Shown piece by piece: positions 4,048 through 57,510 of a DNA stretch of 64,000 nucleotides. Position 1 is the first letter of the stretch; every line of letters starts with the position of its first letter. Under the pieces are notes generated by a model. It was not told the DNA's origin. It was given only the letters and a program-made list of their open reading frames with translations, and made no database searches. The stretch comes from Candidatus Pacearchaeota archaeon (GTDB lineage: Archaea; Nanobdellota; Nanobdellia; Pacearchaeales; UBA284): positions 567,285-631,284 of the forward strand of contig CP061211.1 in NCBI GenBank assembly GCA_026016245.1, written 5' to 3'. A program made the translations under genes and the position numbers.

Positions 4048-4055
4048 TTTTATTT

Positions 4056-5022: not shown

Positions 5023-5031
5023 AAAGATAAA

Positions 5032-16359: not shown

Positions 16360-16360
16360 G

Positions 16361-37511: not shown

Positions 37512-37620
37512 AGCCCGGTAGTGTAGTGGTCAAATTCTCTAAATAAAAATTTTATTTATAGAAGACTAAGCATCCAAGGCTTTGGACCTTGAGACCCAGG
37601 TTCGAATCCTGGCCGGGCTA
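37512..37620 (+). tRNA. tRNA-Gln(UUG) with a predicted non-canonical intron of about 36 nt in the D-loop
   Basis: Acceptor AGCCCGG/CCGGGCT, D stem GTGT..GCAT, anticodon stem CAAGG/CCTTG with loop CTTTGGA, T arm CCAGG-TTCGAAT-CCTGG. About 36 nt (ATTCTCTAAATAAAAATTTTATTTATAGAAGACTAA) are inserted between the D-loop AGTGGTCAA and the 3' D-stem strand. Confidence 0.7.
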
Positions 37621-41601: not shown

Positions 41602-42264
41602 ATGGATGAAAAAGAAATAGAAAAATTAAGAAAAAAAATTTTAGAACAGGTAGAAAGGCTACCAGAAGAGCAAGCCTCCTCTTTGAGAGAACAGATTAAG
41701 AGCGCAAGTCCTCAAGAGCTGGAGAATTTTTTAAAACAACAAATGGTTCGAGGAGATGAGGGCGAGTGTTTTTTCTGCCAGCTTGTTTCTGGTAAAGTTG
41801 AAACAGTGAGGATATATGAGGATGCTGATATTTTATGTATTCTAGATATCTATCCTGCAAATCCTGGACATATGATTGTTATACCAAAAAAACATTTTCA
41901 GTTTATGCATGAAATCCCTGATGCTCTTCTGAAAAAGATATTTATTTTTATTAAAACAATAGAGCCTATACTCCTTGATACTACTAAAGCACATGGTTTA
42001 AGCATTTATATTGCCCAAGGACAGGGAGCTGGTCAGAAAGTAAAACATTTTTCTGTAAATCTTATTCCTAGATTTGAAGGTGATAATATTAATTTTGAAT
42101 GGCAAAGAAAAAAAGTTTCTAAAGATGAATTAGAAAAGCTTGGTAAAAAGATAAGGGAAAAAAGCGAGGGAATTGTAAGGGGGGAGCAGGAAAAAAAGGA
42201 GAAAGAAAAAGAATTGGAAGAGGCTGAAAAGATGATGAAGCATGTTAAGGAAAGAGTGCCTTAG
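41602..42264 (+). CDS. HIT-family-like hydrolase with a Glu/Lys-rich tail
   Basis: GECFFCQLVSGKVETVRIYEDADILCILDIYPANPGHMIVIPKKH is the HIT N-terminal core. The histidine triad looks degenerate (VKHFSVNL). Confidence 0.5.
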   Translation: MDEKEIEKLRKKILEQVERLPEEQASSLREQIKSASPQELENFLKQQMVRGDEGECFFCQLVSGKVETVRIYEDADILCILDIYPANPGHMIVIPKKHFQFMHEIPDALLKKIFIFIKTIEPILLDTTKAHGLSIYIAQGQGAGQKVKHFSVNLIPRFEGDNINFEWQRKKVSKDELEKLGKKIREKSEGIVRGEQEKKEKEKELEEAEKMMKHVKERVP

Positions 42265-43154
42265 ATTCCAAACAAGTAATGTATTATTATAAATAATAAA
42301 TCACCCACAAACAGGCTGCATATTAAAGCTATGAGGAAGACTGGTACAAAAGGCAGGCCGTATTTGATTGTAATTTTCTTTTTTGATTTTCTAAGCAGCT
42401 GAATGTCTTTCTTACTTAAACCATGAATGCTTGGCTTGATCATTTTATTCTTTATTTTTACAGATTCAATTATCCAGTCTCCTTCACTGAGCTTGCTTGC
42501 TGGAACTTTTCTGATCATTGCTGAATTTTCTGCAGCTTTGATGAAAGAGTAAAGTAAGGGCAGGATTAAGAATACTATAAATGGAATGAAAAACCAGCTT
42601 TTATCAAATAAACTTAATGTTAAGGCGATGGCAGCTATAAGCCAGGAGATAGTTCTGAAAAATCTTATTCTTTTGAATGTTTTTTGGAATTCCATGCCAA
42701 ATGTTTTATTTCTAATTGCTGAGAAGATACTGAAGAAAAGTCCATAAATAGAACCTATGAAAAATATGTTAATTAGGAAAATGAGAAGAAAAGGCTCATT
42801 GAATGATCCTAGTGAATAAACCTGAAAATGTGATGCAAAAATTGGTTGTGTTGCAAAAACCACAGAAAGGGCCATCAAAAGTTTGGCATCCCCTCCCCCA
42901 AATATTCTAGTATAATAGAAGAGATGCGCTAAAAGGTAAAAGATTGCAAATGCAGCTAGGGCATACCAAAAATATGGGGCTTGTTTTTCCATAATTGCTG
43001 CAAGGGCCCTTACTGCAAATGCTATAAAAATTAAACTAAAACTTAGCCAGTTTGGCACCTCCCTCTTTCTTAAATCAGTTACAGAGGCTGTGATTAGCCA
43101 TAAAAAGGCGATAGATACTAACAAAATATCAGAAATGAAAATTATATCTGCCAT
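42261..43154 (-). CDS. Prepilin/preflagellin peptidase (A24 family, PibD/FlaK-like)
   Basis: First catalytic Asp box ASVTDLRKREVPNWL. Second GGGDAKLLMALS. N-terminal polytopic helices. An extended C-terminal domain is present. Confidence 0.8.
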   Translation of the reverse strand: MADIIFISDILLVSIAFLWLITASVTDLRKREVPNWLSFSLIFIAFAVRALAAIMEKQAPYFWYALAAFAIFYLLAHLFYYTRIFGGGDAKLLMALSVVFATQPIFASHFQVYSLGSFNEPFLLIFLINIFFIGSIYGLFFSIFSAIRNKTFGMEFQKTFKRIRFFRTISWLIAAIALTLSLFDKSWFFIPFIVFLILPLLYSFIKAAENSAMIRKVPASKLSEGDWIIESVKIKNKMIKPSIHGLSKKDIQLLRKSKKKITIKYGLPFVPVFLIALICSLFVGDLLFIIIHYLFGI

Positions 43155-43365: not shown

Positions 43366-44700
43366 ATGGTGATTTGGGTTTTCATTATTGCTGGAGCCAT
43401 ACTTGGCGCAATACTTTTAGGTGCTGGCAAGCCAGGGGGAAGAGTTTCTTACACTATGGGTGATATATTTAATGCTAGTATTGGTGCTGCTATTCCTGGT
43501 TTAATAATAGGGGGTGTTATTGGAGTTTTGCTTAGCCTTTTTGCTATCTATGACCTTGGTTTTAGTGGCTTGCTTGCCACTTTAATTCTAGGTGTTGTTG
43601 GCGCTTTTGGTCTTGGCTTGCTTTTTTTTGTTTTCACTGCTGTTGTCAAGGGTCTTTCTAATTTAATTGGTGAGAGAGGTGCGAGAATTATTACTGGGCT
43701 TCTTGCAGGGGCTGTGATCGGTGCTATATTTGGTTTATTCTTTTCACCGCTTGGAGTTACTATAATGCCTGAGTATTTGAAATTTGCAGATCCTTTGAAA
43801 GAGACTGTTGTTGATGGCTTGGAAGAGCTTGCGAAGTTTAGGCACTGTCTTTATGCTGATCCAAGATGCCCTTTCTTTGTTTCCTGGGAAGATCCAAATG
43901 TGCAATCAATTGTTGAGGAATTTAATGTGAAAGTGGATTTCTCTGAAAGAAGAATCCTTCCAGATAATACTATAAATCTTCTTGTATCATTATCTGTTCG
44001 AAATCCTGAGTTTGCAGAGCTTCATATTAAGCCCAAATGTTTTTTCAAAAAAGACAAAGAAAGAGAGCTTATTGTTGAGAGAATGGGGAGTTATGCTTTT
44101 GGCGATGAATTTGTTTTTGGGACCACATCACCTGGGCAAGAACTGCATACAACTTTTAGATGCATAGGAGAGATTCCAGAAGCTGCTGATAAAAATATCT
44201 ATAGTGAGTATGTTGTTGTGGAATTAGAAAGGCCTGTGGGTGTAAAAACAATCTGGCCAGTGTGGATAGGAGAACAGCCAAGAATGGGAATTGTCAGGAG
44301 TGAGATGAAATTCAATGCTCCTTATATTGTTGCTCTTGGAAGCAATAATGACATGCCTTTTGAAGAAGGCAAGGAATATGATTTTCAGCTGACAATTAAA
44401 AGAAAAGAAAAAGGAGCTAAGCTGAAAGAAATAGAAACAATAAACGTGAAATTCCCTGAGGATGTCTTGGCAAGCTGTGATAATTTTGAAGGAATAGATC
44501 ATGAATTTGAGTTAAGCGATTATGATTATGATTCTTTAAAAAATATTGCACAGTATGAAAAAGAGTACGATAAATTTATATTCCCTTGTGGACTTTATGT
44601 TGTGAGTGCTCCAAAAGAGGCTGTGATGGCGCCTTTTGAGCTCGAAGCTTATTACAGAGTTTATTCAGATTATTCAATTAGGATAATCAAATCACCTTAA
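43366..44700 (+). CDS. Membrane protein with Gly-rich helices and a soluble C-terminal domain
   Basis: Transmembrane helices rich in G/A/I/L, then about 250 aa of soluble sequence. No motif recognised. Confidence 0.45.
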   Translation: MVIWVFIIAGAILGAILLGAGKPGGRVSYTMGDIFNASIGAAIPGLIIGGVIGVLLSLFAIYDLGFSGLLATLILGVVGAFGLGLLFFVFTAVVKGLSNLIGERGARIITGLLAGAVIGAIFGLFFSPLGVTIMPEYLKFADPLKETVVDGLEELAKFRHCLYADPRCPFFVSWEDPNVQSIVEEFNVKVDFSERRILPDNTINLLVSLSVRNPEFAELHIKPKCFFKKDKERELIVERMGSYAFGDEFVFGTTSPGQELHTTFRCIGEIPEAADKNIYSEYVVVELERPVGVKTIWPVWIGEQPRMGIVRSEMKFNAPYIVALGSNNDMPFEEGKEYDFQLTIKRKEKGAKLKEIETINVKFPEDVLASCDNFEGIDHEFELSDYDYDSLKNIAQYEKEYDKFIFPCGLYVVSAPKEAVMAPFELEAYYRVYSDYSIRIIKSP

Positions 44701-44706
44701 AATAAA

Positions 44707-45639
44707 ATGAAAAAGAGGAAAACTATAGTTGAGATTATTTGTATTATCTTAATATTATTGTTGGTTTTTTTTCTTGTTTCTGGTCAGGAAGGTTGTCAAT
44801 TGCCAGGACAAGGGCCCAAGGCAGAAAAAACTGGAATTGATTACCAGCTTATTAGCGGGATTGATTATTTAAGTGCTGGGAAATTGTTAGAACAAGGAGA
44901 GAGTTTCTATGTTGGCATTAAAATAGAAAATTATGATGAAACACCAAGGACAGGACAGATATGTATTAGGGATAATATAGCTGACACTTTTGGGGGCATT
45001 TCTAGCGAAGGGTTTGGTGAATGTAAGTTTTTCAGTATTCGTGCTGCTGATGTCATCAAAAAAGAAGTCTCAACTATCTGGGGCAAGCAGATTAAGGAGG
45101 AAGTAACCCCTGGAGCAACAGAAATTTATTTTCCTGAAGCAGCAGAATATAGCTATTATAGCCTGCCTTCTTTAGTAAAACCATATTCTGGATTGCTTTT
45201 TGTTTCTTTACAATACAGGGAGACAACACAAGCAACAGGAACAGTTACAGTTCCTGGTCCTGAACAGCCAGCCTTAAGTCAAGAACCAGCACCTATAGCA
45301 ATCTCTGTGGTCAAGTCTATACATAAAAGACAGGATGGCTATAAAGTTGATTTTGAGATCTTACTGAAAAAACAGCAGAAAGCAAAAATTTTCTCCCATG
45401 ATTTTATCCAGGAGAATGTAACTTACTTTAGAGCTGAAATGGTTCCACAAACTTTGGCTTGCACAGTTTCAGGACAGCCTATTACAGGATTAGTTGAGTT
45501 TGAAAACGAAAGGCTTATAAAATGTTCAAGTCTTATTTATACAACAACCCAACAAAGTTATCCTCTTGTGATAACTCTTGATTATGGGGTTGCTCTAGAA
45601 AAGAGTTATCCTTTTGGTATTGAAACAGAAGGTGAATAA
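44707..45639 (+). CDS. Secreted hypothetical protein, paralog A
   Basis: Signal/transmembrane IICIILILLLVFFLVSGQEGCQ. Similar length and cleavage-region pattern to the next ORF. Confidence 0.45.
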   Translation: MKKRKTIVEIICIILILLLVFFLVSGQEGCQLPGQGPKAEKTGIDYQLISGIDYLSAGKLLEQGESFYVGIKIENYDETPRTGQICIRDNIADTFGGISSEGFGECKFFSIRAADVIKKEVSTIWGKQIKEEVTPGATEIYFPEAAEYSYYSLPSLVKPYSGLLFVSLQYRETTQATGTVTVPGPEQPALSQEPAPIAISVVKSIHKRQDGYKVDFEILLKKQQKAKIFSHDFIQENVTYFRAEMVPQTLACTVSGQPITGLVEFENERLIKCSSLIYTTTQQSYPLVITLDYGVALEKSYPFGIETEGE

Positions 45640-45692
45640 AAAAGAAAAAGAAAGATTGTGAAAAAAAGAAAAAAAGAGGAAAAAAAGGAAAG

Positions 45693-46601
45693 ATGAAATT
45701 TGATATTAATTTTTTTCTAGTTTTTTTACTTTTAGCTGTCTTAGTTTTAGCCAGTGGTCAGATGGGTTGTCCTCAGGAAGAGGAAGTAGAGTTTAATACA
45801 ACTGCCCTTATCATGAATTTTGTTGAAAATGCCCCTCCAAATGAACTTGTCACTGGATTGAAATATCCCATTTATGTTGATATAAAGAATCTTGGAGGAT
45901 ATGATGTTCCTAAGGGAGCAGCACATTTTTATCTAAGTGGAATCGGGGATAATTTAGAGAATGTGCAGACTCATGTCCAGAATGTTAATTTTTTGAATAA
46001 GAGAACTGGAACACAGGAAGGCGGTCAGGAAAGAATCAGCTTTGCTACAGAGGCAGAGCCTTGGAAAACCCTACCAGCCCCTTTTAATTTAAACATTCAG
46101 ATAGATTCTTGTTACAGTTATGCTACAATAACCCAAACAAGTATCTGTGTTGGAAAGGGAAATACTATCTGTAGTATAAGTGGAGAAAAAATTGAAACAG
46201 GAAGCAATTCTGCTGCTCCGATACAAATCTCTAGCTTGACAGAGAGCATGACAGGGAATAAACTGTTTGTCACATTTAGAATAGAGAATAAAGGCTTAGG
46301 AGAGGTTTATCTGCCTAATACTGATTGTGATAAGTTACAAGCACAAGATATAAATGAAAAATTAAAACAGAATCAGGTTGAGATATCAATAAGGGTAGAG
46401 GAAGGAGTTACTTGCAGGCTTCAACAATCAACAGAACCTTATGGAACTATAGATGCTCTTGACGGCATTACTTCTATCGGGCAGGTAACATGTCAGAAAG
46501 TTATAGAGGGCGCTGAATCACACTTGTCTCCTTTTGAAATAGTTCTTTCATACAAATACAGAGAAAAAATATCAAAGAGCATAACAATATTGCCAGAGTG
46601 A
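45693..46601 (+). CDS. Secreted hypothetical protein, paralog B
   Basis: Signal/transmembrane FFLVFLLLAVLVLASGQMGCPQ. Paralogous to 44707-45639. Confidence 0.45.
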   Translation: MKFDINFFLVFLLLAVLVLASGQMGCPQEEEVEFNTTALIMNFVENAPPNELVTGLKYPIYVDIKNLGGYDVPKGAAHFYLSGIGDNLENVQTHVQNVNFLNKRTGTQEGGQERISFATEAEPWKTLPAPFNLNIQIDSCYSYATITQTSICVGKGNTICSISGEKIETGSNSAAPIQISSLTESMTGNKLFVTFRIENKGLGEVYLPNTDCDKLQAQDINEKLKQNQVEISIRVEEGVTCRLQQSTEPYGTIDALDGITSIGQVTCQKVIEGAESHLSPFEIVLSYKYREKISKSITILPE

Positions 46602-46993: not shown

Positions 46994-49900
46994 TTGATGT
47001 TAAAAGAGGATAATAGTAAAATCAACAAAGTAACTGCAATAATTTTTTTTATTGTGTTAATTGGACTAGTCTTTTTTATGTTCTTCATAAAACCTGTAAT
47101 CACTGCAAAAGCCATAGCTTTAGAAAAAGAATTTTTTATGCCAAATGAAAAAATCAAAGGGAATTTTACTCTGATTTTAAAAGAGGGCGAACTTATCCCT
47201 TCAAATACAAAAATTCTTATAGAATTGGATGGACAGCAACAAAGAGAGCTCACTATCAAGGAATTTATTGAACTTAGTAATCTTGATATAGAAGAAGAGC
47301 AGGGAGGTTTTTTTATACCTAAGACTAGAATTTCTGGGGCTGGCTTTGGATATGGAAAAGCAGGGCATTATGTAGTTTATCCAGATGTTGATTTTCAATT
47401 AAAAATTATCTCTCCAACAGAAGAAGAAGTAACAGAGATAGAAGAGCCAACAGAAGAAAGTACTGAAGAAAATATTACAGAACAAAACATAACTGAACAA
47501 AACATAACAGAAGAAAATAAGACAGAAGTTCCAGAAGAAAACATCACTGAAATTAAAGAAGAACCTACAGAAGAAGCAACAGAAGCAGAAGAAGAGCCAG
47601 CAGAAGAAGAGAATTCAGGAGAAAATGAAAATCTAGAAGAAGATGTTATAAACTCATTGTCTATTTTTGCTATCTTAAATAAATTTTTCAGTTTTTGGGG
47701 GGCATTTACAATAGTTGAAGAAAGTGGCAATGTAAAAATTATAGAAGCATCTTGTTCTTTGGATGAGCCATTTTATTATGAGTTAGGAGAGGGGGAGCAA
47801 GCAGAACTTATGGAAGGAAGTGTAAGAATAGATGGAGAAATTGTTAGAGATAATAAGGTTGATATTGATATTAAGGACGATGTTTTAACTGTTTCAACAG
47901 ATTATTTTGAAAGCTATGAAGGTTTTGGTGAGGCTTATCTTGGTGATGATTATGAAATCACCCTTAATTTAAATGTTCTTGATTTAAATATTGAAAAAGA
48001 AGGAACCCATACCTTAACTATAACTTTGGTTTATGAAGATGAAGAGTTAATGAATGCTAGTGAAGAAATTGAAGTGAAGCCAGAGAGTATAACAATTAAG
48101 ATTATTGATAAAGATGGAAATATTGAAGATGAAATTTTGGCTAGTTCTACAAAAATAAAAATAAAGATTAGGAAGATTGTTGTGGGGGGAGAGGAAGAGC
48201 ATGAAATTGAAATTGAAGATAATGTGATAAGTATAACTGGTGCAGCGATAATAGAAACTAAACAAGCACTGCCAGAATCTGAAATTATTTTTATTGATTT
48301 TCCAGACAACACAATTATCCAAATAGATGAACCAACAATCGAGCAAAAAGCTAAGGGTTTTGCAACAGAGGTTTTTGCTATAGAACCAGGCTCTGAGATT
48401 GAGATTGAAACTGCAACAATAACTCTTGAAAAATTTACAAGTGATACCATAGCTTCAATTTTATATTGTGAAGATTGGAATATTAATAATTTTAATTGTG
48501 ATGGCAACTGGATGAATTCTGGTTTAGAATTTTTAGATAATGGTACACATATAAGTTTTGAGACAGATCATTTTACTGCTTACATTGGAGCTGGAAATAT
48601 GACTTGCCCTTATTTTGCAAATGACAGTGTTATTTTAGTTGAAAGTGTTGCTTGCAATGGAACAGCTTTTATTATAAACAGCAGTAATGTTGAGATAGAT
48701 TGCCAAGGCCATACAATTAATTATTCTGCCACAACCTTAGGATATGGTATTAATAATACAGCTGGTTTTGACAATGTTACAATAAAAAATTGCATAATCA
48801 AACAAACTAATTTTAGTATAGCTTATGCTTATGGAATTTATTTAAAAAATGGAATTGTAAATATTACCATACATAATAATACCATTTTAACTTATGCTTA
48901 TGCAAGTTATGCTATATATCAAACACTTCCTTACACTGGCTCAGACAATATAACTGTTACTGACAATATTGTAAATGGGGGAATAAATCTGGGATATGTA
49001 CCAAATTGTACAGTTACTGGAAATAATGTAACTAATAGTTCATTTGTGGTGGGTGGTTCAGGGGACAGCCCTTATTGCCAAATTACAGACAATAATGTTA
49101 GTGGGGGAGATGCTTATTTTTCTGGGCCCTATCATAATATAGAAGATAATAATTTTTATGACATAGGATCTGTTATGATAGATGGGAGCCATATTTATTT
49201 TTCAGACAATTATATTTCTAGTAGTACAGATTCAGGAGATGGTACTTTAATTTTAGACTCATCAAGCATTACGAATAATACAGTATATAGCAATATAATC
49301 GTGACTTCAGGTGATGATGATAATGATGCTGTTTATCTTGATGGTGCTAATGACACAAACTTCAGTTATAATAATATAACCACTGATTGTGTTGATTGTG
49401 ATGGGATTGTGTGGGAATATCCTAAGGTCTTCAATTTGGCTTATAATAATATAACCACTAATGGAAATAACAGTTTTGGCTTAATGCTTTCATATGCTTA
49501 TAGTGATGTTAAAAATATAACTAATAATACAATAAAGACTTATGGGGCTAGTTCTGGGGGGATCTATTTGGAGACCACTTTAAATTATGATGGCCCTAGC
49601 AAGAATGTTTTTAGAAATAATATAATAGAGACTGCAAAAGGAATTGCATTTAATTTTTCAGAAGATTGTAATGATCCTTATGATGGTCATCCAAGTGATA
49701 TTGATACAAGCAATACAGCTGAAGGAAAGCCAATTTATTATTATTGCAATACAACAAGCACTTTAATACAAGACCTAGATGCTGGGCAGATTCTTTTTGG
49801 TCCTGTTGCAAATGATCCAAATATTGTTTTAGAGAATGTTTCAGCAGAAGATGGTATTTTTGTTTCTGATGGTGTCAGTAATTTGATAATAAGAGATTCT

Positions 49901-52900
49901 ACAATAGACACATCAAATCAAGAAAAAGTTGCTGGGATATATATATATTGGGGAGATAATATTAATATTTCTAATAATAATTTGATAAATAATTATTATG
50001 GTGTTTTTCTATCTGGCAGTTCTAATAATATAACCTCAAATAATATATCTAATAATGAATATGGTATTTTATTGAAGGGGAGTTCATATAGTTATATTTT
50101 ATCTAATATAATGGATTCAAATACAATCCATATTTTATTAAATTCAACTTTAGGAGGTCATATTGAGAGTTCTAACACAGTCTCCTTAAACAATCTTTCT
50201 GGAGGAGATTATGGGATTTATTTAAGTGATGAAGAAAATAATGATTTTGAAAACAATAAGATAGAAAATACTGATTATGGAATTTATATTTATGGAACTG
50301 TTTCAGAGCAAATAGGAGCCAATGCTTTTACAAACAATAATGTAAGTAATAGTTCTGTTTATGATTTTTATTTATATTATGTAAATACTCCTGGTTTTGG
50401 AAATGATCCTGTAATTAATTTAACAACAGGAAATGTGATGTCAAGTTTTGAGGCTTGGAATATTGCCTTAAAAAATACGACAAGCCCTGCTGCTGATCCT
50501 AGTGGATATGATAATATAAGTAAATATTTGAATATAACAAACAATTCAGCTGATTCTTGGGTATTTTTGAATATAAGTTATAATGAATCTGCTTTAGGAG
50601 ATATAAATGAATCAAGTTTGGAAATATGGAAGCATAATGGCTCATGGCATAATACTACTTTTTATACAACAAGCGGGGTAAATGAAGCTAGTGATTATGT
50701 TTTTGCTAACATTACCTCTTTCAGTATTTTTGCTCCTTTTGTAAAAAGCACAGGAGGTGATATAGATTCTTGCCAAATTCTTAATGAATCAGGAACTTAT
50801 ACACTTAATCAATCTGTTTCATCAAGCGGAACTTGTTTCACGATAGAAAATAATAGCATAACTCTTGATTGTGATGGATATACAATAAATTATTCAGCAA
50901 CAGAAAAAGGTTATGCAATAAACAACACTAATGGATTTGATAACGTGACAATAAAGAATTGTAATATAAAACAAACTTCAAGTTCTTATACACATGCTTA
51001 TGCGATATACTATAATAATAGTGTTAATAGCACAATATATAATAACATAATAACGACTTCAGGAACCTTTGGTTGGGTAATTTATCTTACTACAACCTCA
51101 AGCTTTAATATAACTAATAATAATATAACAACTTTAGGAGGAGATGGTGATGCAGTTTATCTTTTTTCGAGCTCAAATAATAACTTAACTAATAATAATA
51201 TAACAACTTTTGGGAGTGGTGGTTATGCACTTATTCTTTCCACAAACTCGAGTTTTAACAATCTAAATAATAATACAATTACAACTAATGGACCCGAGAG
51301 TTGGGGAATTCATCTTGCTTCAAACTCAAGCTTTAACACATTAATCAACAATACAATAAATGTAACGACAAACCCAGATGACAAAATAGCACTATATATT
51401 GATGGAAGCCATCATAATGTTATAGATGGTGGTTCAATCAGTGTAACATCATCCAATAATCAATATGCTTCTGTTTTAATTACTAGAAGTGATAACAATA
51501 TTATAAAGAACTCCTATATCTTCAGCGATTCAACTTATGGTCTTAGAGTTTATTGGACCGGAACAGGTAATACAACAATATACAATACAATAATCAATTC
51601 AACATGGGGCCCTGACATTATATACGACAACGATGTTGGTGGCTGGACAAATCTGACTAATTGTTCTTTTAATAAAAGTGATGTTTCATTTGGCTCAGGC
51701 TCAACTGGCTTAATAAATGTGAAATGGTATGTAGATGTCTATGTTAACAACACTTTTGGATATCCTATTTACTTAGCTCAAGTAGATTTAGTAGATACAA
51801 ACGGTAATACAGAAACAGCTATGACAAACACTTCAGGCTATACAGAAAGAGCAAATGTTACAGAATATTATCAAAATGCTACTGGAAGCTATACTTATAA
51901 TAACTATACTGCAAAAGCTTCTAAGACAGGATATTATGATTCAAGCAAACAAGTTAATTTAACAACAAATGCAATCAGGGATGATAATACGCAAGTTGTT
52001 TTAACTTTAACAAAACACTCTGGCGGCGGAGGCGGCGGAGGAACAGGTTATTGTGGTGATAATGCTTGTGATCCAGATGAAAATTGTTATAATTGTCCTG
52101 AAGATTGTGGAGAATGTTGTGGGAATAATATATGTGAGCCATTATATGGAGAAGATTATACAAACTGCTGGAAAGACTGCTGTTATCCAGAAGGAATAGA
52201 GATGCCTGTCCTGCCAAACAGAACTTGCTGTGCAAATTTAAATCGAGGAATAATTTATGATATGGGTTGTGTTGCTAATCAGAATGACCAGTGTGAAGGA
52301 TGTGAGCTTATCGGAAGTGTTGTTTGTGTAAATTGTGGTAATAATATCTGTGGTTTAGGTGAGAATTATTGTAATTGTCCTGAAGATTGTGTTGAAGCAA
52401 TATTAGATTGTTCACAACTACCTCCTTTGTTTGTAAATATTGAATGGGATTGGTGGCCAATAACTCCTCAAACAAAACTAAACTGGTATCAGATGCCCTC
52501 CCCAGATATAGAATTGTTAAGAACTGAAGTTTATAGTGCAGATAAATGTATAGGAAGTGAATGTAATTTTGTGTTAGAAGAAGTTGTTAATGCTCCGGCA
52601 AGTGAATGGTCAGCACATGTTTCTGAAAGACTTAAATTTTTCACAATTATAGGAAAAACAAAACTAGGCCAAGGAGAGTGTAAGCCTGAATATTATGAGC
52701 AGGGTGTTGGTAATAGCAATAAACCAGGATGGTATAATGCTTGTACTTTAGAGCTTTTAAAAGAAGAGACTTTAATGGTTGCAGAGCCAAGAGCTTATTG
52801 TTGTTATCCTGAAGCTGATAGTGAGGGTTGGTATAATGTTCAATGTGATCAGGTGAAGATACCAGAAAATTTAATAAGATATTCTGATTGTGAGGAAGGA

Positions 52901-53563
52901 GAGTATGCTTTATTATGTGATCAGACAAGTGATATTCTTGTAAAATTCACGCAAGATCTTGTTCATAATAAACAGATTGGAAGAGGAGAACAAGGTCAGA
53001 ACACTAGTGTTAATTGGATAGTTTATATGCCTTTTGAAAATATCACTAATAACACAGATTACTTGCTTAAGATTGGAGATATCGTGGATTATGTTGCTTA
53101 TTGGGATGCAGAAAAACAAAAACAATTAGGAAGTGCTAGAGGTTATAAGGCAGGAATCCCATTAATAACTACAGGTGCTTTTGAACTTGAATCAGGAAGG
53201 CCTTACTTTGTTTCTTCAAGTGAAAAAACAGATAGGATAACCTGGGTTGGAAGAATTCCTGAGCATGTTACTTTCCACTTAAAATATGTGCCTGGAACTT
53301 TTAGTGAAAATTATATGTCCTTACCTTTAGATACTTTTTTAAAGAAAGCAGTTGATATTTGTGATGCTTTAGGTCTAGGAGATGATGGGAGTGTTGCTAC
53401 TTGGGATCCAATAACACAAAAATATGTTAACGAGGAAGCATCAAGGTGTGGGTTTATTAGAAGCCCCATTGGGGGAAATAGTGCGCTTAATTTTGATTTA
53501 AATCCTGGACAAGTTTATGAAGTTGCAGGGTTAGAACAAGATATAACTTGGAAACAAGAATAA
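46994..53563 (+). CDS. Giant surface protein (2189 aa) with parallel beta-helix repeats and C-terminal Cys-knot-rich modules
   Basis: Signal/transmembrane AIIFFIVLIGLVFFMFFI. An acidic linker rich in E/T/N. Dozens of NNITT/NxT-containing beta-helix rungs (...NNTITTNG..., ...NNNITTFGSGG...). Two copies of the module C..L...G.Y.LN...C..I.N..ITLDCDG(H/Y)TINYSA. A Gly8 linker. CGDNACDPDENCYNCPEDCGECCGNNICE-type Cys-rich domains. Confidence 0.7.
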   Translation: MMLKEDNSKINKVTAIIFFIVLIGLVFFMFFIKPVITAKAIALEKEFFMPNEKIKGNFTLILKEGELIPSNTKILIELDGQQQRELTIKEFIELSNLDIEEEQGGFFIPKTRISGAGFGYGKAGHYVVYPDVDFQLKIISPTEEEVTEIEEPTEESTEENITEQNITEQNITEENKTEVPEENITEIKEEPTEEATEAEEEPAEEENSGENENLEEDVINSLSIFAILNKFFSFWGAFTIVEESGNVKIIEASCSLDEPFYYELGEGEQAELMEGSVRIDGEIVRDNKVDIDIKDDVLTVSTDYFESYEGFGEAYLGDDYEITLNLNVLDLNIEKEGTHTLTITLVYEDEELMNASEEIEVKPESITIKIIDKDGNIEDEILASSTKIKIKIRKIVVGGEEEHEIEIEDNVISITGAAIIETKQALPESEIIFIDFPDNTIIQIDEPTIEQKAKGFATEVFAIEPGSEIEIETATITLEKFTSDTIASILYCEDWNINNFNCDGNWMNSGLEFLDNGTHISFETDHFTAYIGAGNMTCPYFANDSVILVESVACNGTAFIINSSNVEIDCQGHTINYSATTLGYGINNTAGFDNVTIKNCIIKQTNFSIAYAYGIYLKNGIVNITIHNNTILTYAYASYAIYQTLPYTGSDNITVTDNIVNGGINLGYVPNCTVTGNNVTNSSFVVGGSGDSPYCQITDNNVSGGDAYFSGPYHNIEDNNFYDIGSVMIDGSHIYFSDNYISSSTDSGDGTLILDSSSITNNTVYSNIIVTSGDDDNDAVYLDGANDTNFSYNNITTDCVDCDGIVWEYPKVFNLAYNNITTNGNNSFGLMLSYAYSDVKNITNNTIKTYGASSGGIYLETTLNYDGPSKNVFRNNIIETAKGIAFNFSEDCNDPYDGHPSDIDTSNTAEGKPIYYYCNTTSTLIQDLDAGQILFGPVANDPNIVLENVSAEDGIFVSDGVSNLIIRDSTIDTSNQEKVAGIYIYWGDNINISNNNLINNYYGVFLSGSSNNITSNNISNNEYGILLKGSSYSYILSNIMDSNTIHILLNSTLGGHIESSNTVSLNNLSGGDYGIYLSDEENNDFENNKIENTDYGIYIYGTVSEQIGANAFTNNNVSNSSVYDFYLYYVNTPGFGNDPVINLTTGNVMSSFEAWNIALKNTTSPAADPSGYDNISKYLNITNNSADSWVFLNISYNESALGDINESSLEIWKHNGSWHNTTFYTTSGVNEASDYVFANITSFSIFAPFVKSTGGDIDSCQILNESGTYTLNQSVSSSGTCFTIENNSITLDCDGYTINYSATEKGYAINNTNGFDNVTIKNCNIKQTSSSYTHAYAIYYNNSVNSTIYNNIITTSGTFGWVIYLTTTSSFNITNNNITTLGGDGDAVYLFSSSNNNLTNNNITTFGSGGYALILSTNSSFNNLNNNTITTNGPESWGIHLASNSSFNTLINNTINVTTNPDDKIALYIDGSHHNVIDGGSISVTSSNNQYASVLITRSDNNIIKNSYIFSDSTYGLRVYWTGTGNTTIYNTIINSTWGPDIIYDNDVGGWTNLTNCSFNKSDVSFGSGSTGLINVKWYVDVYVNNTFGYPIYLAQVDLVDTNGNTETAMTNTSGYTERANVTEYYQNATGSYTYNNYTAKASKTGYYDSSKQVNLTTNAIRDDNTQVVLTLTKHSGGGGGGGTGYCGDNACDPDENCYNCPEDCGECCGNNICEPLYGEDYTNCWKDCCYPEGIEMPVLPNRTCCANLNRGIIYDMGCVANQNDQCEGCELIGSVVCVNCGNNICGLGENYCNCPEDCVEAILDCSQLPPLFVNIEWDWWPITPQTKLNWYQMPSPDIELLRTEVYSADKCIGSECNFVLEEVVNAPASEWSAHVSERLKFFTIIGKTKLGQGECKPEYYEQGVGNSNKPGWYNACTLELLKEETLMVAEPRAYCCYPEADSEGWYNVQCDQVKIPENLIRYSDCEEGEYALLCDQTSDILVKFTQDLVHNKQIGRGEQGQNTSVNWIVYMPFENITNNTDYLLKIGDIVDYVAYWDAEKQKQLGSARGYKAGIPLITTGAFELESGRPYFVSSSEKTDRITWVGRIPEHVTFHLKYVPGTFSENYMSLPLDTFLKKAVDICDALGLGDDGSVATWDPITQKYVNEEASRCGFIRSPIGGNSALNFDLNPGQVYEVAGLEQDITWKQE

Positions 53564-54427
53564 TTAATGAATAATCTTTATTGATTTCATAATTGTTTTT
53601 TCTGAATCTTCTGGTTTAAATTTCACAAAATAATGTCCTTGTGGCAAGTCCCCGGTATAAACTTTATTTCCCTTTACTTCTTTTACTTGACTTCCAATCA
53701 TATTATAAATATTAATTTTCCCAGATTGATTTAAATAGAAAAATTCATTAGCAGGATTTGGTCTAACATTTAACTTATCAACTTTTACTTTTTTTTCTAA
53801 ATTTTCTTTTATACTTACAGTATCAAGATTAAAACTTGCTAAAGTGTCAGCATCAAGGAATCTATGTTGAACTTCTCCTTTTGTAATTCCATATTTTCCT
53901 GGTGCTGCAGCTTCAATAACTACGGTGTCTTCATCAACTAATCCTAAAGTAGAAGCATCGAAATAAATTTCATATGCCCAACTTGAAGAAGTTATATCAA
54001 ATCTTCCATAAAGAGTATCTAAACCATCTTGTTTGAAACATTTTGCATCAACACTATCTATTCCGCCATCAGTAACATCTCTCACTGAAATTCCATAACC
54101 GCCAACAAATGCTGTTGGTTGTAAAGTAAAATTTCCTCTACAAAACCATTTTAAATAAGAAGTATCTGAAGGGGCATCAAACCTAACTAATCCACTATCT
54201 CCAGGAGAAACTCCCCATGCGTCTGGAACTGTCTTTACCCAGTAATTGGGAACAATCTGTCCAACCATTGTTTTTGCACTATCTAAACTATTAGGTTTGA
54301 AAAAAGTAACATTAGCGCTATCAGGGTAAGCCCACCCATCAAAGTTAGGTAAAGCATCAGCCAACTTAGGCAAGAGAAAAGTAACTCCAGCTAAGAATAA
54401 TGTTAATAAAGTGCTTTTTAATCCCAT
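53564..54427 (-). CDS. Secreted protein with a C-terminal domain resembling a Por/T9SS-type sorting domain
   Basis: Signal peptide LLTLFLAGVTFLLPKLADA. The last 70 aa (VRPNPANEFFYLNQSGKINIYNMIGSQVKEVKGNKVYTGDLPQGHYFVKFKP) match the Por_Secre_tail pattern (PNPA...iynm.G..v......dls.l..G.Yfvk). Confidence 0.5.
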   Translation of the reverse strand: MGLKSTLLTLFLAGVTFLLPKLADALPNFDGWAYPDSANVTFFKPNSLDSAKTMVGQIVPNYWVKTVPDAWGVSPGDSGLVRFDAPSDTSYLKWFCRGNFTLQPTAFVGGYGISVRDVTDGGIDSVDAKCFKQDGLDTLYGRFDITSSSWAYEIYFDASTLGLVDEDTVVIEAAAPGKYGITKGEVQHRFLDADTLASFNLDTVSIKENLEKKVKVDKLNVRPNPANEFFYLNQSGKINIYNMIGSQVKEVKGNKVYTGDLPQGHYFVKFKPEDSEKTIMKSIKIIH

Positions 54428-54530
54428 GTTTTTTTCAGGCCAATATGATATTTAAAGCTTTTGGTTTTACTACTTTTTAGGGGTTTCTTTTAGATATCTA
54501 CGAAAAATATTTATACCATGTAAGCTTATA

Positions 54531-54746
54531 ATGAAAATGGCTATGGAGAAAAAAACCCTTTTAGAAACAGAAAAAGAAAAAGCTTCACTAATTGGAAAAA
54601 TAGATAATAAGATGGCTTTTGATAATGAACATTGCAGTTGTCAATGTGCCTGTGATTGTGTTTGTATATGTGATTGTGATACATATGATTCCTTAAAACA
54701 AAATAAAGAAAAAGCTCTTGAAAAAAATTATTGGAAATATTCTTAA
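54531..54746 (+). CDS. Cys-rich candidate RiPP precursor peptide (71 aa)
   Basis: A polar/helical leader-like half (MKMAMEKKTLLETEKEKASLIGKIDNK), then the core HCSCQCACDCVCICDCDTYD with eight Cys alternating with single residues. It lies 25 nt upstream of a radical SAM/SPASM gene. Confidence 0.55.
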   Translation: MKMAMEKKTLLETEKEKASLIGKIDNKMAFDNEHCSCQCACDCVCICDCDTYDSLKQNKEKALEKNYWKYS

Positions 54747-54771
54747 TTGAGGGTAAGGGGGGAGATTTAAA

Positions 54772-56175
54772 ATGAAATTTAAATTATTTAGAAATCTCTA
54801 TTTTAAAAAAGTTAATTCTGATTATTGGGGAGTTTATCATCCATTTAATGAATATAAAATAATTTTTATTTCCTCTGATTTAAAAGCTGAACTTAAAAAA
54901 TTCCAAAATTCTGGAGAAATATTGGAAAATAATCCTTTTAAGAACGAATTAGAAAAATTAAAAAAAGAATATTTTTTAGTTCCAGAATTATTTAATCATA
55001 CAAAACCTATACAAACTATTAGAGAAGGATTACCAAAAAAACCAAGTATAGGATTATTATATCTTCTTTTAACAGATTCATGTAATTTAAATTGTAGTTA
55101 TTGTGCTATTGAAGAAAATTTAGAGAGTCTTTGTAAAAATTCTAAATTAAGAGCAAAGAACATGAGTATAAAAACTTGTGATAATGCAATTGATTTTTAT
55201 GTTATGTGTAAAGATGATAAATTACCAGAACATCGTGTGATATTTTATGGAGGAGAACCATTATTAAATGAAAAAGTTTTTAGACATGCTGTTTCTAGAT
55301 TGAGAAGTGAAGAAAAAAAAGGAAATTTAAAAAATTTGGGGATGGTCATGAATACTAATGCAACAAAAGTAAATGAAGAAATTGCAGAATTCTTTGCTAA
55401 AAATAAAATAAGCCCAGCAGTCTCATTAGATGGTTATAAAGAAATTCATGATTCTCAGAGAAAAAACTTAAGAGGAAAAGGAAGTTACGATGAAACTATA
55501 AGAGGATATAAATTATTTCAAAAGCATGGTATTCAACCGGGAATATCCTGTACAATTACAAAAAATAATATTGGAAAACTAGAAGAAATCGCAGAATTTT
55601 TTGTTGATAATCTTAATCCAAATGGAATTGGTTTTAATCTTTTACTTGATTTTAAAGATAAAATTAATCCTTTAGCAGTTTCTGTTAAAAAAGCAACTAA
55701 AGCAATGTTAAAAAGTTTTGAATTTTTAAGAGAAAAAGGTGTTTTTGAAGAAAGAGTTATGAGGCGTCTTGGAAAAATAATTAAAAAAGAAATGCATCTA
55801 AAAGATTGTGCTGGTTATGGTAGACAAGTTGTTGTTGCACCTGATGGAAGAATCGGTCCATGTCAGATAGCAATGGCTGCAGATTATCCTTCACCAGGAA
55901 ATGTCAATGATTCTAAAATGTTTGATCCCAATGATAATGAATTGTTCTTAGAATGGAATAAAAGAACAGCATTCAATATGTCTCAGTGTGAAGATTGCAG
56001 TTTTATAACAATCTGTGGAGGAGGATGTGCATATCAGTCTTATATAAAAACAGGAAATATATGGCAAGTTGATAAAAGAATATGTGAACATTGTAAGGAA
56101 TTAATAGATTGGGTTATTGATGATTTATGGAAAACTAAACAAAAAAATATTCAATATGAGACCAGATTGGGATAA
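54772..56175 (+). CDS. Radical SAM / SPASM-domain peptide-modifying enzyme
   Basis: CNLNCSYC is the Cx3Cx2C [4Fe-4S]/SAM cluster. FYGGEPLL. VSLDGYKEIHDSQR is the SPASM/twitch family box. The C-terminal CEDCSFITICGGGC matches the SPASM signature CxxCx5Cx3C. The N-terminal 85 aa before the rSAM core could be an RRE-like leader-binding domain. Confidence 0.8.
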   Translation: MKFKLFRNLYFKKVNSDYWGVYHPFNEYKIIFISSDLKAELKKFQNSGEILENNPFKNELEKLKKEYFLVPELFNHTKPIQTIREGLPKKPSIGLLYLLLTDSCNLNCSYCAIEENLESLCKNSKLRAKNMSIKTCDNAIDFYVMCKDDKLPEHRVIFYGGEPLLNEKVFRHAVSRLRSEEKKGNLKNLGMVMNTNATKVNEEIAEFFAKNKISPAVSLDGYKEIHDSQRKNLRGKGSYDETIRGYKLFQKHGIQPGISCTITKNNIGKLEEIAEFFVDNLNPNGIGFNLLLDFKDKINPLAVSVKKATKAMLKSFEFLREKGVFEERVMRRLGKIIKKEMHLKDCAGYGRQVVVAPDGRIGPCQIAMAADYPSPGNVNDSKMFDPNDNELFLEWNKRTAFNMSQCEDCSFITICGGGCAYQSYIKTGNIWQVDKRICEHCKELIDWVIDDLWKTKQKNIQYETRLG

Positions 56176-56749
56176 AGTTTATAAGAAAGGCCCCCATTGG
56201 GAAAGAAAACATTCTAAAGCAATAGAAGATTTTGTTAGATATTTAGAAAAAAGAGACAAAGTTCTTGATCTTGGCTGTGGGTCGGGCCGCGATGTTGTTT
56301 TTCTTGCTAGGAATGGATTTGATGTTTATGGAATAGATATCTCTAAAGAAGCAATTAAAAAAGCAAGAAATAAAATTAAAGAAAAAGGTTTGAAAGCTTA
56401 TTTTGATGTAGGAGATTTAACTGCCTTGAAATTTGAAAACAATTTTTTTGATGCTATTTATTCTAATGCTGTTTTAAATTTCACACTACTTCAAGAAAGT
56501 TGTTCTGAAATCTATAGAATATTGAAAAAAGATGGCTTAGCATATCTTATATTTCTTTTAGATTACATTCCTTTATTTAATGATGGTAAGAATAAAGAGG
56601 ATCATTCGTTTTATCCAGAAGATTTGATTTTACAAACTTATAAAAATTCAAAATTCAATATAATCTATAGCAAGAAATTCCTTTCACTAGATCTTGGGGG
56701 AGAAAAACCACATAAACATAATATTTTGAACTTGCTTTTAAAAAAATGA
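56156..56749 (+). CDS. Class I SAM-dependent methyltransferase
   Basis: VLDLGCGSGRDVVFLARNGFDVYGIDIS is motif I (GxGxG). Downstream motifs follow. The start overlaps the rSAM gene. Confidence 0.75.
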   Translation: MRPDWDKVYKKGPHWERKHSKAIEDFVRYLEKRDKVLDLGCGSGRDVVFLARNGFDVYGIDISKEAIKKARNKIKEKGLKAYFDVGDLTALKFENNFFDAIYSNAVLNFTLLQESCSEIYRILKKDGLAYLIFLLDYIPLFNDGKNKEDHSFYPEDLILQTYKNSKFNIIYSKKFLSLDLGGEKPHKHNILNLLLKK

Positions 56750-57510
56750 GGGGATTGCCGAAAATAGAATTTAAATTAGCATCTTTTAAATATAATTATC
56801 AAATTCTAAATTATTTTGTTTTTCATAAATCTCCAAAAATTAGAAAAAGAATTCTGAATGTTTATCCTGAATTAAGAAAAATTTATTCTATCAAAAAAAA
56901 TACAGAAAGAGATAAATTTATTAGAGAATTTTGTAAGAGACAATCATCAAAAAATTCTAAAGCAATAATGAAGAAAAAAGAAATTATCGATAAAGAATGG
57001 AGGAAAATACATACACCATTTATGAAGGCATTGAGCAAAGTTTTAGAAATAAAATGGCCCAACACAAAGATAATAGGTTATCTTTCAATAGTTCCAGTTT
57101 ATCCTAGACATCTCAATAATTGGAGTTTTTCTTTTTATTATAAAGAAAATACTAAAGGCATTATTGCTGTAATAGCACACGAAATATCCCATTTTTTATA
57201 TTTCAAAAAATTCAAAGAACTTTTTCCAAAAATCAATAAGAGAAGGTATGATATTCCTTATATAGAATGGTATCTTAGTGAAATGCTTGCTCCAATAATT
57301 TTAGCACATCCAAAAATCAAAAAAATAATTGGAAAGCGAATACAAAGAGGTTATATTTTGAGAAAAAGAGAAAAATTATTATATAGAAAACTTCTTTTAC
57401 TTTATAAAGATAGTTTGAAAAATAGAGAACCTTTTTCAGAATTCTTAAAGAAAACTTATAGATTAGTCAAAAGAATAAATAGAGGCTTTGTGGTTAAAGG
57501 CTTCCCATAA
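56746..57510 (+). CDS. Hypothetical protein with an HExxH motif (putative zinc metallopeptidase)
   Basis: IAVIAHEISHFLYF. The start overlaps the methyltransferase stop in an ATGA (translational coupling). Confidence 0.4.
   Translation: MRGLPKIEFKLASFKYNYQILNYFVFHKSPKIRKRILNVYPELRKIYSIKKNTERDKFIREFCKRQSSKNSKAIMKKKEIIDKEWRKIHTPFMKALSKVLEIKWPNTKIIGYLSIVPVYPRHLNNWSFSFYYKENTKGIIAVIAHEISHFLYFKKFKELFPKINKRRYDIPYIEWYLSEMLAPIILAHPKIKKIIGKRIQRGYILRKREKLLYRKLLLLYKDSLKNREPFSEFLKKTYRLVKRINRGFVVKGFP

Follow-up and report, generated by a model that had tools for sequence, protein, structure and literature searches.

[quoted passage not shown] During export, the bacterial CTD is recognised from the periplasmic side, and T9SS bacteria carry tens of tail-bearing genes per genome. 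To our knowledge, no bacterial-type outer membrane is expected in DPANN archaea, and we know of no cultivated member of the Pacearchaeota and of no identified host. Large extracellular proteins of Pacearchaeota and Woesearchaeota were proposed by Castelle et al. (2021) to mediate attachment to bacterial cell walls, and bacterial hosts have been proposed for the small-genome Pacearchaeota (PMC8204110). A T9SS-type tail is mentioned neither in that paper nor in its supplementary tables, and a search for literature joining T9SS or Por_Secre_tail with DPANN, Pacearchaeota, WOR-3 or archaea returned no relevant paper.

Here we describe a gene in a 64-kb stretch of DNA (the window, meaning the whole stretch analysed) from a 710,724-bp contig that carries the NCBI label "Candidatus Pacearchaeota archaeon". 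Its 287-aa product is 100% identical to an NCBI entry named [quoted passage not shown], and is laid out as a signal peptide, an all-beta N-region, a linker and a T9SS type A CTD:

53564..54427, minus strand: the family gene, with an ATG start, encoding 287 aa (from the ORF list)
53564-53566, minus strand: its stop codon
53567..53764, minus strand: T9SS type A CTD (Por_Secre_tail), residues 222-287, assigned by HMMs and PDB matches, with motifs PNP, Y..G, GxYF and a terminal K
53765..53818, minus strand: conserved linker, residues 204-221 (TVSIKENLEKKVKVDKLN), with the family consensus VGIKENLEKK in the 21-member alignment
53819..54349, minus strand: N-region, residues 27-203, all-beta with a GIDSVDAKC motif, assigned from the AF2 model and homologues
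54350..54427, minus strand: signal peptide, residues 1-26 (MGLKSTLLTLFLAGVTFLLPKLADAL), assigned by inspection, with the AxA-type cleavage motif ADA/LP
54449..54456, minus strand: archaeal TATA-box-like element TTTAAATA, read from the sequence, 21 nt upstream of the ATG

Like the T9SS cargo of Bacteroidota, among which are the Flavobacterium johnsoniae substrates 8glj_D and 8glk_D and the ice-binding protein 5uyt_A, the 287-aa protein combines an N-terminal Sec signal peptide with a CTD of ~65-75 residues that has the same motifs and the same extreme C-terminal position and may also have their Ig-like beta-sandwich fold. It differs in its archaeal host, in the absence of any T9SS gene from the ~74 kb examined, in the number of tail-bearing genes (one or two per locus in the archaeal family) and in the likely role of the tail, which we infer to be a docking module and not an outer-membrane export signal. 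Archaeal PGF-CTERM/archaeosortase signals are likewise conserved C-terminal modules on secreted archaeal surface proteins, but the 287-aa protein has no PGF-type motif, C-terminal hydrophobic helix or basic tail. Its C-terminus (GHYFVKFKPEDSEKTIMKSIKIIH) closes with KSIKIIH after a beta-strand and contains no hydrophobic helix, and the combination of short motif, hydrophobic helix and basic residues that distinguishes archaeosortase-type signals is not found in it. The proteins of Castelle et al. (PMC8204110) come from the same lineage, are secreted or surface-located and have bacterial ancestry, and the window also encodes SLT and M23 murein hydrolase domains. Those proteins, however, are defined by a murein transglycosylase domain, whereas this one is small, non-enzymatic by fold and carries a T9SS-type tail.

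The original prediction, made from the sequence alone, had noted that the last 70 residues fit the Por_Secre_tail pattern and had suggested a search with TIGR04183 and PF18962. Both curated HMMs matched significantly and above their cut-offs: PF18962 (Por_Secre_tail, Pfam) with E=1.1e-7 and 32.4 bits (gathering cut-off 27 bits), over residues 223-280 and profile positions 3-71 of 75, and TIGR04183 (NCBIfam) with E=4.9e-7 and 29.6 bits against a cut-off of 23 bits, over residues 223-284 of 287. A weak match to a T9SS DNase model was the only other NCBIfam hit. A profile built from four family tails and run against the PDB matched the C-terminus of 5uyt_A (E=1.2e-6), 8glk_D (E=4e-4) and 8glj_D (E=7e-3, titled [quoted passage not shown]), and the matched chains are T9SS CTDs. 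Tails with 30-46% identity to this one also occur in unrelated proteins, 101 of 119 of which have the tail at their very end. Within the 21-member family alignment, Y241, G245, G264, Y266 and K284 are near-invariant and PNP is common, and the CTD motifs are also seen in residue-level alignments to 5uyt, 8glk and 8glj. The original observation is confirmed: the tail is a true homologue of type A T9SS CTDs, and the secreted protein that carries it is encoded by an archaeal genome. The description "Bacteroidetes-style" holds for the motif type and not for the lineage, the only named bacteria that share the N-domain being WOR-3 (Caldifarciminota) and not Bacteroidota.

Inspection of the N-terminus (MGLKSTLLTLFLAGVTFLLPKLADA/LP) suggests a Sec signal peptide, with a K-containing n-region, a hydrophobic core and the AxA site ADA/LP; AF2 predicts a helix at residues 5-17, and the hydrophobic core and a PK(L/E/Q)A(D/K/N)A motif are conserved in the family alignment. 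No Pfam family was found for the N-region (residues 27-203). In an AF2 model of the protein made with the 21-sequence alignment (pLDDT 85), most of the N-region exceeds pLDDT 90, and it is probably composed of two beta-sandwich sub-domains. Foldseek of this model against the PDB returned solely tandem Ig/FN3-type proteins, all with TM<0.25. Homologues of the N-region occur in the archaeal family and in four bacterial proteins (P0022, P0033, P0058 and the one at locus L003). The linker is probably flexible, as its pLDDT is low (58-63), and is shared with a WOR-3 homologue (VGTKENLEKK) and with a tandem paralogue at locus L002.

The neighbouring genes had been judged archaeal, and the window indeed carries a set of archaeal markers:

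15251-15826: GINS51
16274-16891: ribosomal protein S3Ae
33846-34790: TFIIB/TFB
38107-39507: DHH-CID GAN/RecJ-like protein
40379-41146: eIF2-alpha

Two tRNA matches in the window are 109 and 123 nt long and thus intron-containing, and RadA and an RPA-like protein adjoin the window just outside it. The family gene has the composition of its contig: its GC content of 0.326 is close to the 0.330 averaged over the contig, and its codon usage, which the original prediction had proposed to compare with the contig average, is mid-range and not foreign. In the 103-bp divergent intergenic region upstream of the gene, a purine-rich stretch (AAAAGC) precedes the TATA-like element, which from its canonical archaeal promoter geometry may well be functional. 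None of the T9SS machinery (SprA/Sov, PorV, PorU, GldK/L/M/N or PorK/L/M/N) was found in the ~50 ORFs scanned in the window or in the ~10-kb left flank, which together cover ~74 kb of the 710-kb genome.

The family was revealed by an exhaustive HMMER search. Word-indexed searches had yielded 34 candidates and one match with a tail-only profile, and only 7 proteins with the 21-member profile; a locus search with a 5-sequence alignment gave no more than 2 loci from genomes and 3 from metagenomes. Grouped at 50% identity, the family falls into at least 25 clusters; the architecture is constant, and the tail invariably closes the protein (21/21 aligned members). For most members the domain of life is inferred from flanking genes. 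Loci L007/8 and L013 are archaeal by ribosomal L15e and archaeal Nre, L004 carries the NCBI label Pacearchaeota, and L005/6 share three further genes with the window at 32-52% identity; assignment is uncertain for L001, L010 (labelled "Paceibacterota") and L014. Family identities range from 22 to 49% with archaeal synteny kept. This divergence, together with the native GC and codon usage and the archaeal TATA box, contradicts a recent or sporadic import. P0027 has a tail like that of P0004 on a different body, in a context (L016) that points to neither archaea nor bacteria, and an S8 protease in L014 ends in the same class of tail.

Selection acts on the tail. Between the window gene and its orthologue in L002, dN/dS is 0.13-0.15 for the tail and 0.20 for the N-region; purifying selection on the tail is thus no weaker than on the N-region. 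The tandem paralogue in L002 keeps the signal peptide (55% identity), the linker and the tail, while its N-region has diverged beyond recognition; the "address" parts of the protein are therefore its conserved parts.

The family gene lies between a giant gene convergent to it and a cluster divergent from it:

46994..53563, plus strand: 2189-aa giant surface protein, convergent, with Pfam matches to NosD (81 bits) and Beta_helix (80 bits)
52562..53563, plus strand: C-terminal "partner" domain of the giant, ~residues 1857-2189, ending DITWKQE, assigned by homology
54531..57510, plus strand: divergent cluster of a 71-aa Cys-rich peptide, a radical-SAM/SPASM peptide maturase, a methyltransferase and a 254-aa protein (Pfam, NCBIfam)

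The giant has a TM anchor at its N-terminus, contains NosD/right-handed beta-helix repeats as well as Cys-rich modules, and carries a conserved domain at its C-terminus; no nucleotide separates its stop codon from that of the family gene (TAA/TTA). The C-terminal partner domain has no match in Pfam, NCBIfam or PDB sequences. Homologous domains form the C-terminus of the gene convergent to the family gene in L002 (41% identity), L005/6 (36%), L007/8 (30%), L013 (32%) and L014 (33%) and, as partial matches, in L004 (47% over 133 aa) and L010 (36% over 163 aa); in L001 the homologue (38%) is one gene removed. The family gene is thus paired with this domain at nine loci, which are all the non-bacterial loci examined and include four lineages shown to be archaeal, and the domain is absent from the bacterial locus L003. 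The strongest association found for the tail protein is with the archaeon's own giant surface protein. Because the two genes are convergent, they are not co-transcribed; their pairing could reflect co-regulation or a shared pathway. On the other side, the rSAM gene is kept beside the family gene in three lineages, with homologues in L007/8 and L004, and the methyltransferase is next to the family gene also in L007. Next to the rSAM genes of L007, L008 and L004, no Cys-rich precursor peptide resembling the one at 54531-54746 was found.

Outside the archaea, a full-length homologue occurs in the WOR-3 MAG contig JALVOT010000005.1 (L003:9968-10876), which also encodes LonA and a GWxTD protein. 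It resembles the 287-aa protein in its signal peptide, GIDSVDAKC N-region, VGTKENLEKK linker and tail (30% identity over the full length), and differs in its bacterial context and in having neither a convergent partner gene with the giant's C-terminal domain nor an rSAM neighbour. P0058 is an N-domain-only protein from WOR-3 MAGs. P0022 and P0033 share the N-domain and the type A tail with the 287-aa protein but are longer (892-1017 aa), with additional CARDB and Kelch (propeller) modules between them (N-domain, CARDB, Kelch and Por_Secre_tail); a bacterial context is confirmed for P0033, which lies on a clearly bacterial contig (L012), and not for P0022. A rough NJ tree places the WOR-3 homologue as sister of a single archaeal clade, which does not polarise the direction of transfer of the whole protein or of the N-domain. 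Since the tail family is overwhelmingly bacterial and the N-domain also occurs in bacteria, an old inter-domain transfer of a gene of bacterial origin appears to be the best reading. The horizontal acquisition put forward in the original prediction is thus partly supported, by the bacterial relatives of both N-domain and tail, though not as a recent event and, by the NJ tree, without a direction for the whole protein. The search for a donor of the N-terminal part led to WOR-3 (L003, P0058), with the same reservation on direction.

We consider it probable, on balance, that the protein descends from a bacterial T9SS cargo, has become a stable, Sec-exported archaeal surface protein, and has had its tail exapted as a docking module together with the giant. 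The ancestor would have been a T9SS cargo with an N-terminal beta-sandwich region and a type A CTD. Following its ancient transfer across domains, the family would have been stable and vertically inherited, diversifying within the Pacearchaeota lineage. Transcription from the archaeal TATA promoter would probably give a leaderless mRNA, and Sec export would be followed by cleavage of the signal peptide between ADA and LP, as the sequence suggests. The mature protein of ~260 aa is predicted (pLDDT 85) to consist of beta-sandwich modules, the flexible conserved linker and the tail. The tail is unlikely to be a signal for translocation across an outer membrane of its own cell, because no T9SS gene was found in the ~74 kb examined and no outer membrane is expected in DPANN. 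Selection has nevertheless maintained it, presumably as a folded Ig-like docking or anchoring module. Given the gene pairing, its likeliest docking context would be the N-terminally membrane-anchored beta-helix giant, with which it may physically interact, and tail protein and giant would together form part of the archaeon's cell-surface attachment apparatus.

The tail could instead be a true sorting signal of an archaeal system, read by an archaeal protease or transpeptidase that couples cargo to the S-layer or to glycans, in the manner of PorU or archaeosortase. The L002 paralogue, with its signal peptide, linker and tail retained on a wholly diverged cargo region, fits such a system; the conserved linker at the boundary of cargo and tail resembles a processing site, and other proteins of the family loci share the tail class, as does the L014 S8 protease. 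However, the neighbourhood of the family gene shows no conserved candidate for a processing enzyme, and with one tail protein in the 64-kb window and one or two per related locus the numbers are far below those of T9SS bacteria. On our analysis this reading is rather unlikely.

A second alternative looks outward, to a host. As an episymbiont or parasite of a T9SS bacterium (WOR-3 or a related lineage), the archaeon would display the CTD so that it docks on PorV/SprA or the attachment complex, tethering the cell, or its giant adhesin, to the host surface. All type A recognition motifs are kept in the tail under strong purifying selection, which is equally expected if the tail engages the T9SS components of another organism; these motifs, however, also make up the core of the folded structure. 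Past gene exchange, and hence contact, with WOR-3 bacteria is indicated by their full-length homologue and their relatives of the N-domain. Peptidoglycan-degrading domains are encoded in the window:

1716-2810: SLT transglycosylase

The M23 peptidase domain lies inside a 2562-aa giant, one of two window proteins of >2000 aa. These domains, and the bacterial hosts proposed for small-genome Pacearchaeota (PMC8204110), make the bacterial-associated lifestyle of the original prediction plausible. Against docking on a host, the CTD is recognised in bacteria from the periplasm, so that binding from outside is hypothetical, and the strongest genomic association of the gene is with an archaeal protein and nothing bacterial. 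We regard host mimicry as improbable, and the suggestion of the original prediction that the archaeon exploits a host's secretion or attachment machinery as unsupported. Its specific form, in which the tail protein sits at the tip of the giant beta-helix adhesin and docks on the CTD-binding components (PorV/SprA, attachment complex) of a T9SS host such as WOR-3, is given equally little credence.

Finally, the tail might be a generic Ig-like or FlgD_ig-like beta-sandwich, resembling Por_Secre_tail by convergence or very distant ancestry, an outcome that the original prediction had named, along with the lack of a TIGR04183 match, as one that would speak against it. The fold is simple, and the only other Pfam match of the 287-aa protein is a weak one to a TcfC E-set domain (12.6 bits). 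Giant proteins with 5-25 internal tail-like copies (P0016, P0024 and others) align to the same part of the profile, with faint matches to FlgD_ig and Por_Secre_tail; considered as archaeal repeats, they were rejected and judged generic Ig repeats because their contexts look bacterial and their matches are faint and of FlgD_ig type. In the 287-aa protein, by comparison, PF18962 and TIGR04183 both exceed their trusted cut-offs, the best PDB matches are genuine T9SS CTDs, and neither FlgD_ig (PF13860) nor other Ig-like families match even at E<=10 in Pfam, whereas the tail of an L014 subtilase matches FlgD_ig at 39.8 bits. Every family member ends in this module, and the nearest full-length and N-domain bacterial relatives have classic T9SS cargo architecture. 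A generic beta-sandwich is accordingly very improbable and largely refuted.

Mis-assembly or mis-binning of a bacterial gene or fragment into an archaeal contig, which the bacterial-type domain and the labelling of family member P0014 as a CPR bacterium might suggest, deserves hardly any weight, as the gene lies between archaeal genes inside a 710-kb contig with native GC and codon usage and an archaeal TATA box, and the recurrence of the same gene order in independent JGI, ENA, NCBI and Logan assemblies refutes it.

A conserved and selected archaeal family, in a setting where no T9SS machinery was found, indicates that the sorting domain can be exapted outside its secretion system. For annotation, the name "T9SS type A sorting domain-containing protein" on an archaeal protein is not evidence of type IX secretion. 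The family is a trace of ancient gene exchange between Pacearchaeota and bacteria resembling WOR-3, and the shared genes hint at which lineage might be a host or donor. Combined with the beta-helix giant's partner domain, the tail protein offers a testable candidate for an attachment apparatus. Host-docking mimicry, if true, would provide the first molecular handle on how, and to which bacteria, Pacearchaeota attach.

The window ORF 53564–54427 (– strand) is present and encodes a 287-aa product, residues 222–287 of which are the stretch that the original prediction read as a T9SS-type tail and proposed to check by profile search. Both searches were positive, with matches to PF18962 Por_Secre_tail in Pfam (residues 223–280, E = 1.1e-7, 32.4 bits, cut-off 27) and to TIGR04183 in NCBIfam (residues 223–284, E = 4.9e-7, 29.6 bits, cut-off 23) that exceed the curators' thresholds, so the assignment was correct. 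The best PDB matches of a four-tail family profile are also T9SS C-terminal domains (CTDs): the C-terminus of 5uyt_A, 8glk_D, and 8glj_D, which its depositors named [quoted passage not shown]. A missing TIGR04183 match or a generic beta-sandwich would have spoken against the prediction, and neither was encountered. With the cut-offs of both curated CTD models exceeded, T9SS CTDs as best structural matches and no Pfam match of the window protein to FlgD_ig or PKD-type families, a generic beta-sandwich unrelated to T9SS is very improbable; judged by homology, the tail belongs to the type A CTD family. A Sec signal peptide is predicted, by inspection only, at the N-terminus (MGLKSTLLTLFLAGVTFLLPKLADA/LP).

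TFB, eIF2-alpha, a DHH-CID GAN-type protein, GINS51 and ribosomal S3Ae on the contig, together with RadA and an RPA-like protein just outside the left end of the window, uphold the archaeal surroundings claimed for the gene. Two tRNAs, uncalled by ARAGORN in bacterial mode, have match lengths that presumably imply introns, and a canonical archaeal TATA box precedes the tail gene:

20948–21070, + strand, tRNA, full-length Rfam match of 123 nt
37512–37620, + strand, tRNA, full-length Rfam match of 109 nt
54449–54456, TATA box TTTAAATA, 21 nt upstream of the tail-gene ATG

The GC content of the tail gene is 0.326 vs. a contig mean of 0.330, and its GC3 is 0.160 vs. 0.237 (SD 0.052). Its synonymous-codon distance from other genes, a further check proposed, lies mid-distribution. 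The gene and the same neighborhood recur in independent JGI, ENA, NCBI, and Logan assemblies. The tail gene is neither a recent import nor an artefact; misassembly in particular is scarcely conceivable given the native composition, the TATA box, and this recurrence. An identical protein on a 710,724-bp contig is annotated by NCBI as [quoted passage not shown], and the bare observation of the tail is thus already public.

The family profile, run exhaustively with HMMER against 1.84 billion representatives, gave 2155 matches at E ≤ 1e-3. The full architecture is found in ~25 clusters at 50% identity, and the N-region alone is shared with a few proteins; the other matches are to the tail only, at the C-termini of unrelated proteins. 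In an alignment of 21 members, the signal peptide is followed by an N-region of ~180 aa bearing the motif GIDSVDAKC, then by a conserved linker (VGIKENLEKK) and by a tail with the classic PNP, Y..G, GxYF, and K motifs, which forms the extreme end of every member. The AF2 model built from this alignment is all-beta and confident (mean pLDDT 84.8; N-region mostly >90, linker 58–63, tail 70–90), and a Foldseek search of the PDB returned only tandem Ig/FN3-type proteins with low TM-scores, suggesting a string of beta-sandwich modules without an enzymatic fold.

Tail-like sequences also occur in other arrangements. In locus L014, on a contig of 50% GC, a 1000-aa subtilase (Peptidase_S8; 3786–6788, + strand) adjoins the family gene and its partner; its C-terminus matches FlgD_ig (39.8 bits) and, weakly, Por_Secre_tail. 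An 87-aa ORF there (3468–3728, + strand) is almost tail alone (E = 2e-15, family tail HMM) and is possibly a gene fragment. Two proteins from the profile search, P0016 (L011:8001–18215, 3404 aa) and P0024 (L009:8001–13016, 1671 aa), contain ~25 and ~11 evenly spaced internal tail-profile modules, respectively, at a spacing of ~120–125 aa, with faint FlgD_ig and Por_Secre_tail Pfam matches. P0016 also has a dockerin, and both genomic contexts look bacterial.

When the window gene is compared with its 84%-identical orthologue in L002, dN/dS is lowest in linker and tail (0.13–0.15), intermediate in the N-region (0.20), and highest in the signal peptide (0.46), at a dS of ~0.35–0.40, indicating that the sites are unsaturated. 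L002 also encodes a tandem paralogue:

L002:1999–2904, + strand, tandem paralogue of the family gene, ORF called as 439 aa with a likely start at M139

The paralogue has a 55% identical signal peptide and retains linker and tail (E = 1.5e-12 with a local HMM; TIGR04183 22.5 bits vs. a cut-off of 23; undetected by Pfam). Its N-region is fully diverged, with no similarity recognizable by BLAST, a pattern of two conserved "address" ends and a middle that can change freely. By these substitution patterns, the tail is a working part of the protein in the archaeon, maintained by selection.

The stop codons of the tail gene and of a convergent gene for a 2189-aa giant surface protein (46994–53563, + strand) abut directly (TAA/TTA, 53561–53566). 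The giant is anchored by an N-terminal TM segment and contains NosD/beta-helix repeats and Cys-rich modules; its C-terminal domain matches no known family in Pfam, NCBIfam, or, by sequence, the PDB. A homologue of this domain ends the convergent gene in L002 (41% identity), L005/L006 (36%), and L007/L008 (30%), and lies in the same position in L004 (47%, 133 aa), L013 (32%), L014 (33%), and L010 (36%, 163 aa); in L001 it is one gene removed (38%). The N-terminal parts of the partners vary, with lengths from ~400 to 2189 aa. No partner-domain gene lies beside the family gene in the bacterial locus L003. The pairing is kept although the family diverges to 24% identity, and it is the strongest clue to function. 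We infer from it that the tail protein acts together with, and probably binds, the C-terminal domain at the distal end of the membrane-anchored giant.

Upstream of the giant, three consecutive genes (43366–46601, + strand) encode membrane or secreted proteins of 444, 310, and 302 aa without Pfam or NCBIfam matches, adjoining a prepilin peptidase gene (42261–43154, – strand). Their order is conserved in L005/L006 (32–52% identity), and the signal sequences of the 310- and 302-aa proteins end in SGQxGC, a possible lipobox. The trio may be part of the giant's surface apparatus. On the other side of the tail gene lies a radical-SAM cluster in this ~0.7-Mb DPANN genome:

54531–57510, + strand, candidate RiPP cluster

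Its 71-aa peptide contains eight alternating cysteines (HCSCQCACDCVCICDCD); the other genes encode a radical-SAM/SPASM peptide maturase, a SAM methyltransferase, and a 254-aa protein without an assigned role. The maturase has a CX2CX5CX3C motif and is closest in NCBIfam to maturases of the FibroRumin and PapB ranthipeptide types, with no match reaching its equivalog cut-off. The window, L007/L008, and L004 each have a radical-SAM/SPASM gene that diverges from the family gene; no similar Cys-rich peptide was found beside those of L007/L008 and L004.

Leaving aside L001, L014, and L010, which may be archaeal or bacterial, the archaeal loci besides the window are L007/L008 and L013 (ribosomal L15e, archaeal Nre), L004 (NCBI label Pacearchaeota), L005/L006 (three further window genes in common, 32–52% identity), and L002, which lacks a marker of its own and is counted for its 84%-identical orthologue. 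L010 (P0014; 2–3635, – strand) is labelled "Candidatus Paceibacterota bacterium", with SpvB and RHS/YD-shell toxin genes in addition to the convergent NosD/beta-helix partner typical of the family; either the bin has been mislabelled (Pacearchaeota vs. Paceibacterota) or the gene pair also occurs in CPR bacteria.

Among bacteria, a full-length homologue (30% identity) is encoded in L003, a contig of a WOR-3 (NCBI: Caldifarciminota) MAG that also carries LonA and a GWxTD protein, and P0058, from WOR-3 MAGs, has the N-domain only. In P0022 and P0033, the N-domain is joined to CARDB, a Kelch propeller, and a tail that matches Por_Secre_tail strongly, the P0033 locus being unmistakably bacterial (Pol III delta, YceG, RuvX, UvrA, Mur ligase, QueA). 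Both modules occur in bacteria within architectures typical of T9SS cargo, and the tail family is overwhelmingly bacterial, which makes a bacterial origin the best reading. In a rough NJ tree, one archaeal clade has the WOR-3 sequence as its sister, a placement that fits one transfer, whichever its direction. The predicted horizontal acquisition from bacteria is supported, with an ancient date and subsequent domestication; the partner lineage identified by name among bacteria is WOR-3 rather than Bacteroidota.

Among ~50 scanned window ORFs and in the left flank, together ~10% of the genome, no T9SS machinery family was found; within that part the protein lacks the machinery of a functional T9SS substrate, and a single window ORF carries the tail. 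DPANN archaea are not expected to have an outer-membrane translocon. With moderate confidence, we favor an ancient transfer of a bacterial T9SS cargo gene to archaea, where it would now be a vertically inherited family of Sec-exported surface proteins in Pacearchaeota, its CTD exapted for docking or anchoring, most likely within a complex that includes the giant beta-helix surface protein. Recognition of the tail by an archaeal processing or anchoring system yet to be identified is a less probable explanation. Rather unlikely is the exploitation of host machinery that the original prediction had raised as a possibility, with the tail mimicking T9SS cargo and engaging the CTD-binding machinery of a bacterial host, for which the occurrence of the family in both the archaeon and WOR-3 and two murein hydrolase domains in the window speak:

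1716–2810, – strand, SLT lytic transglycosylase, 79 bits
24680–32368, + strand, Peptidase_M23 domain at residues 1870–1991 of a 2562-aa giant

Such domains in an archaeal genome fit the published idea that Pacearchaeota interact with bacterial cell walls (PMC8204110). Also in favor of mimicry is the proposal in the same paper that Pacearchaeota with small genomes live as episymbionts of bacteria. An SLT gene is present in L001 too.

Literature searches, including the supplementary tables of PMC8204110, found no paper discussing an archaeal T9SS-tail protein. The combination seen in this family appears undescribed: a T9SS-type CTD kept under selection where no T9SS was found, gene-paired with a giant adhesin-like protein.
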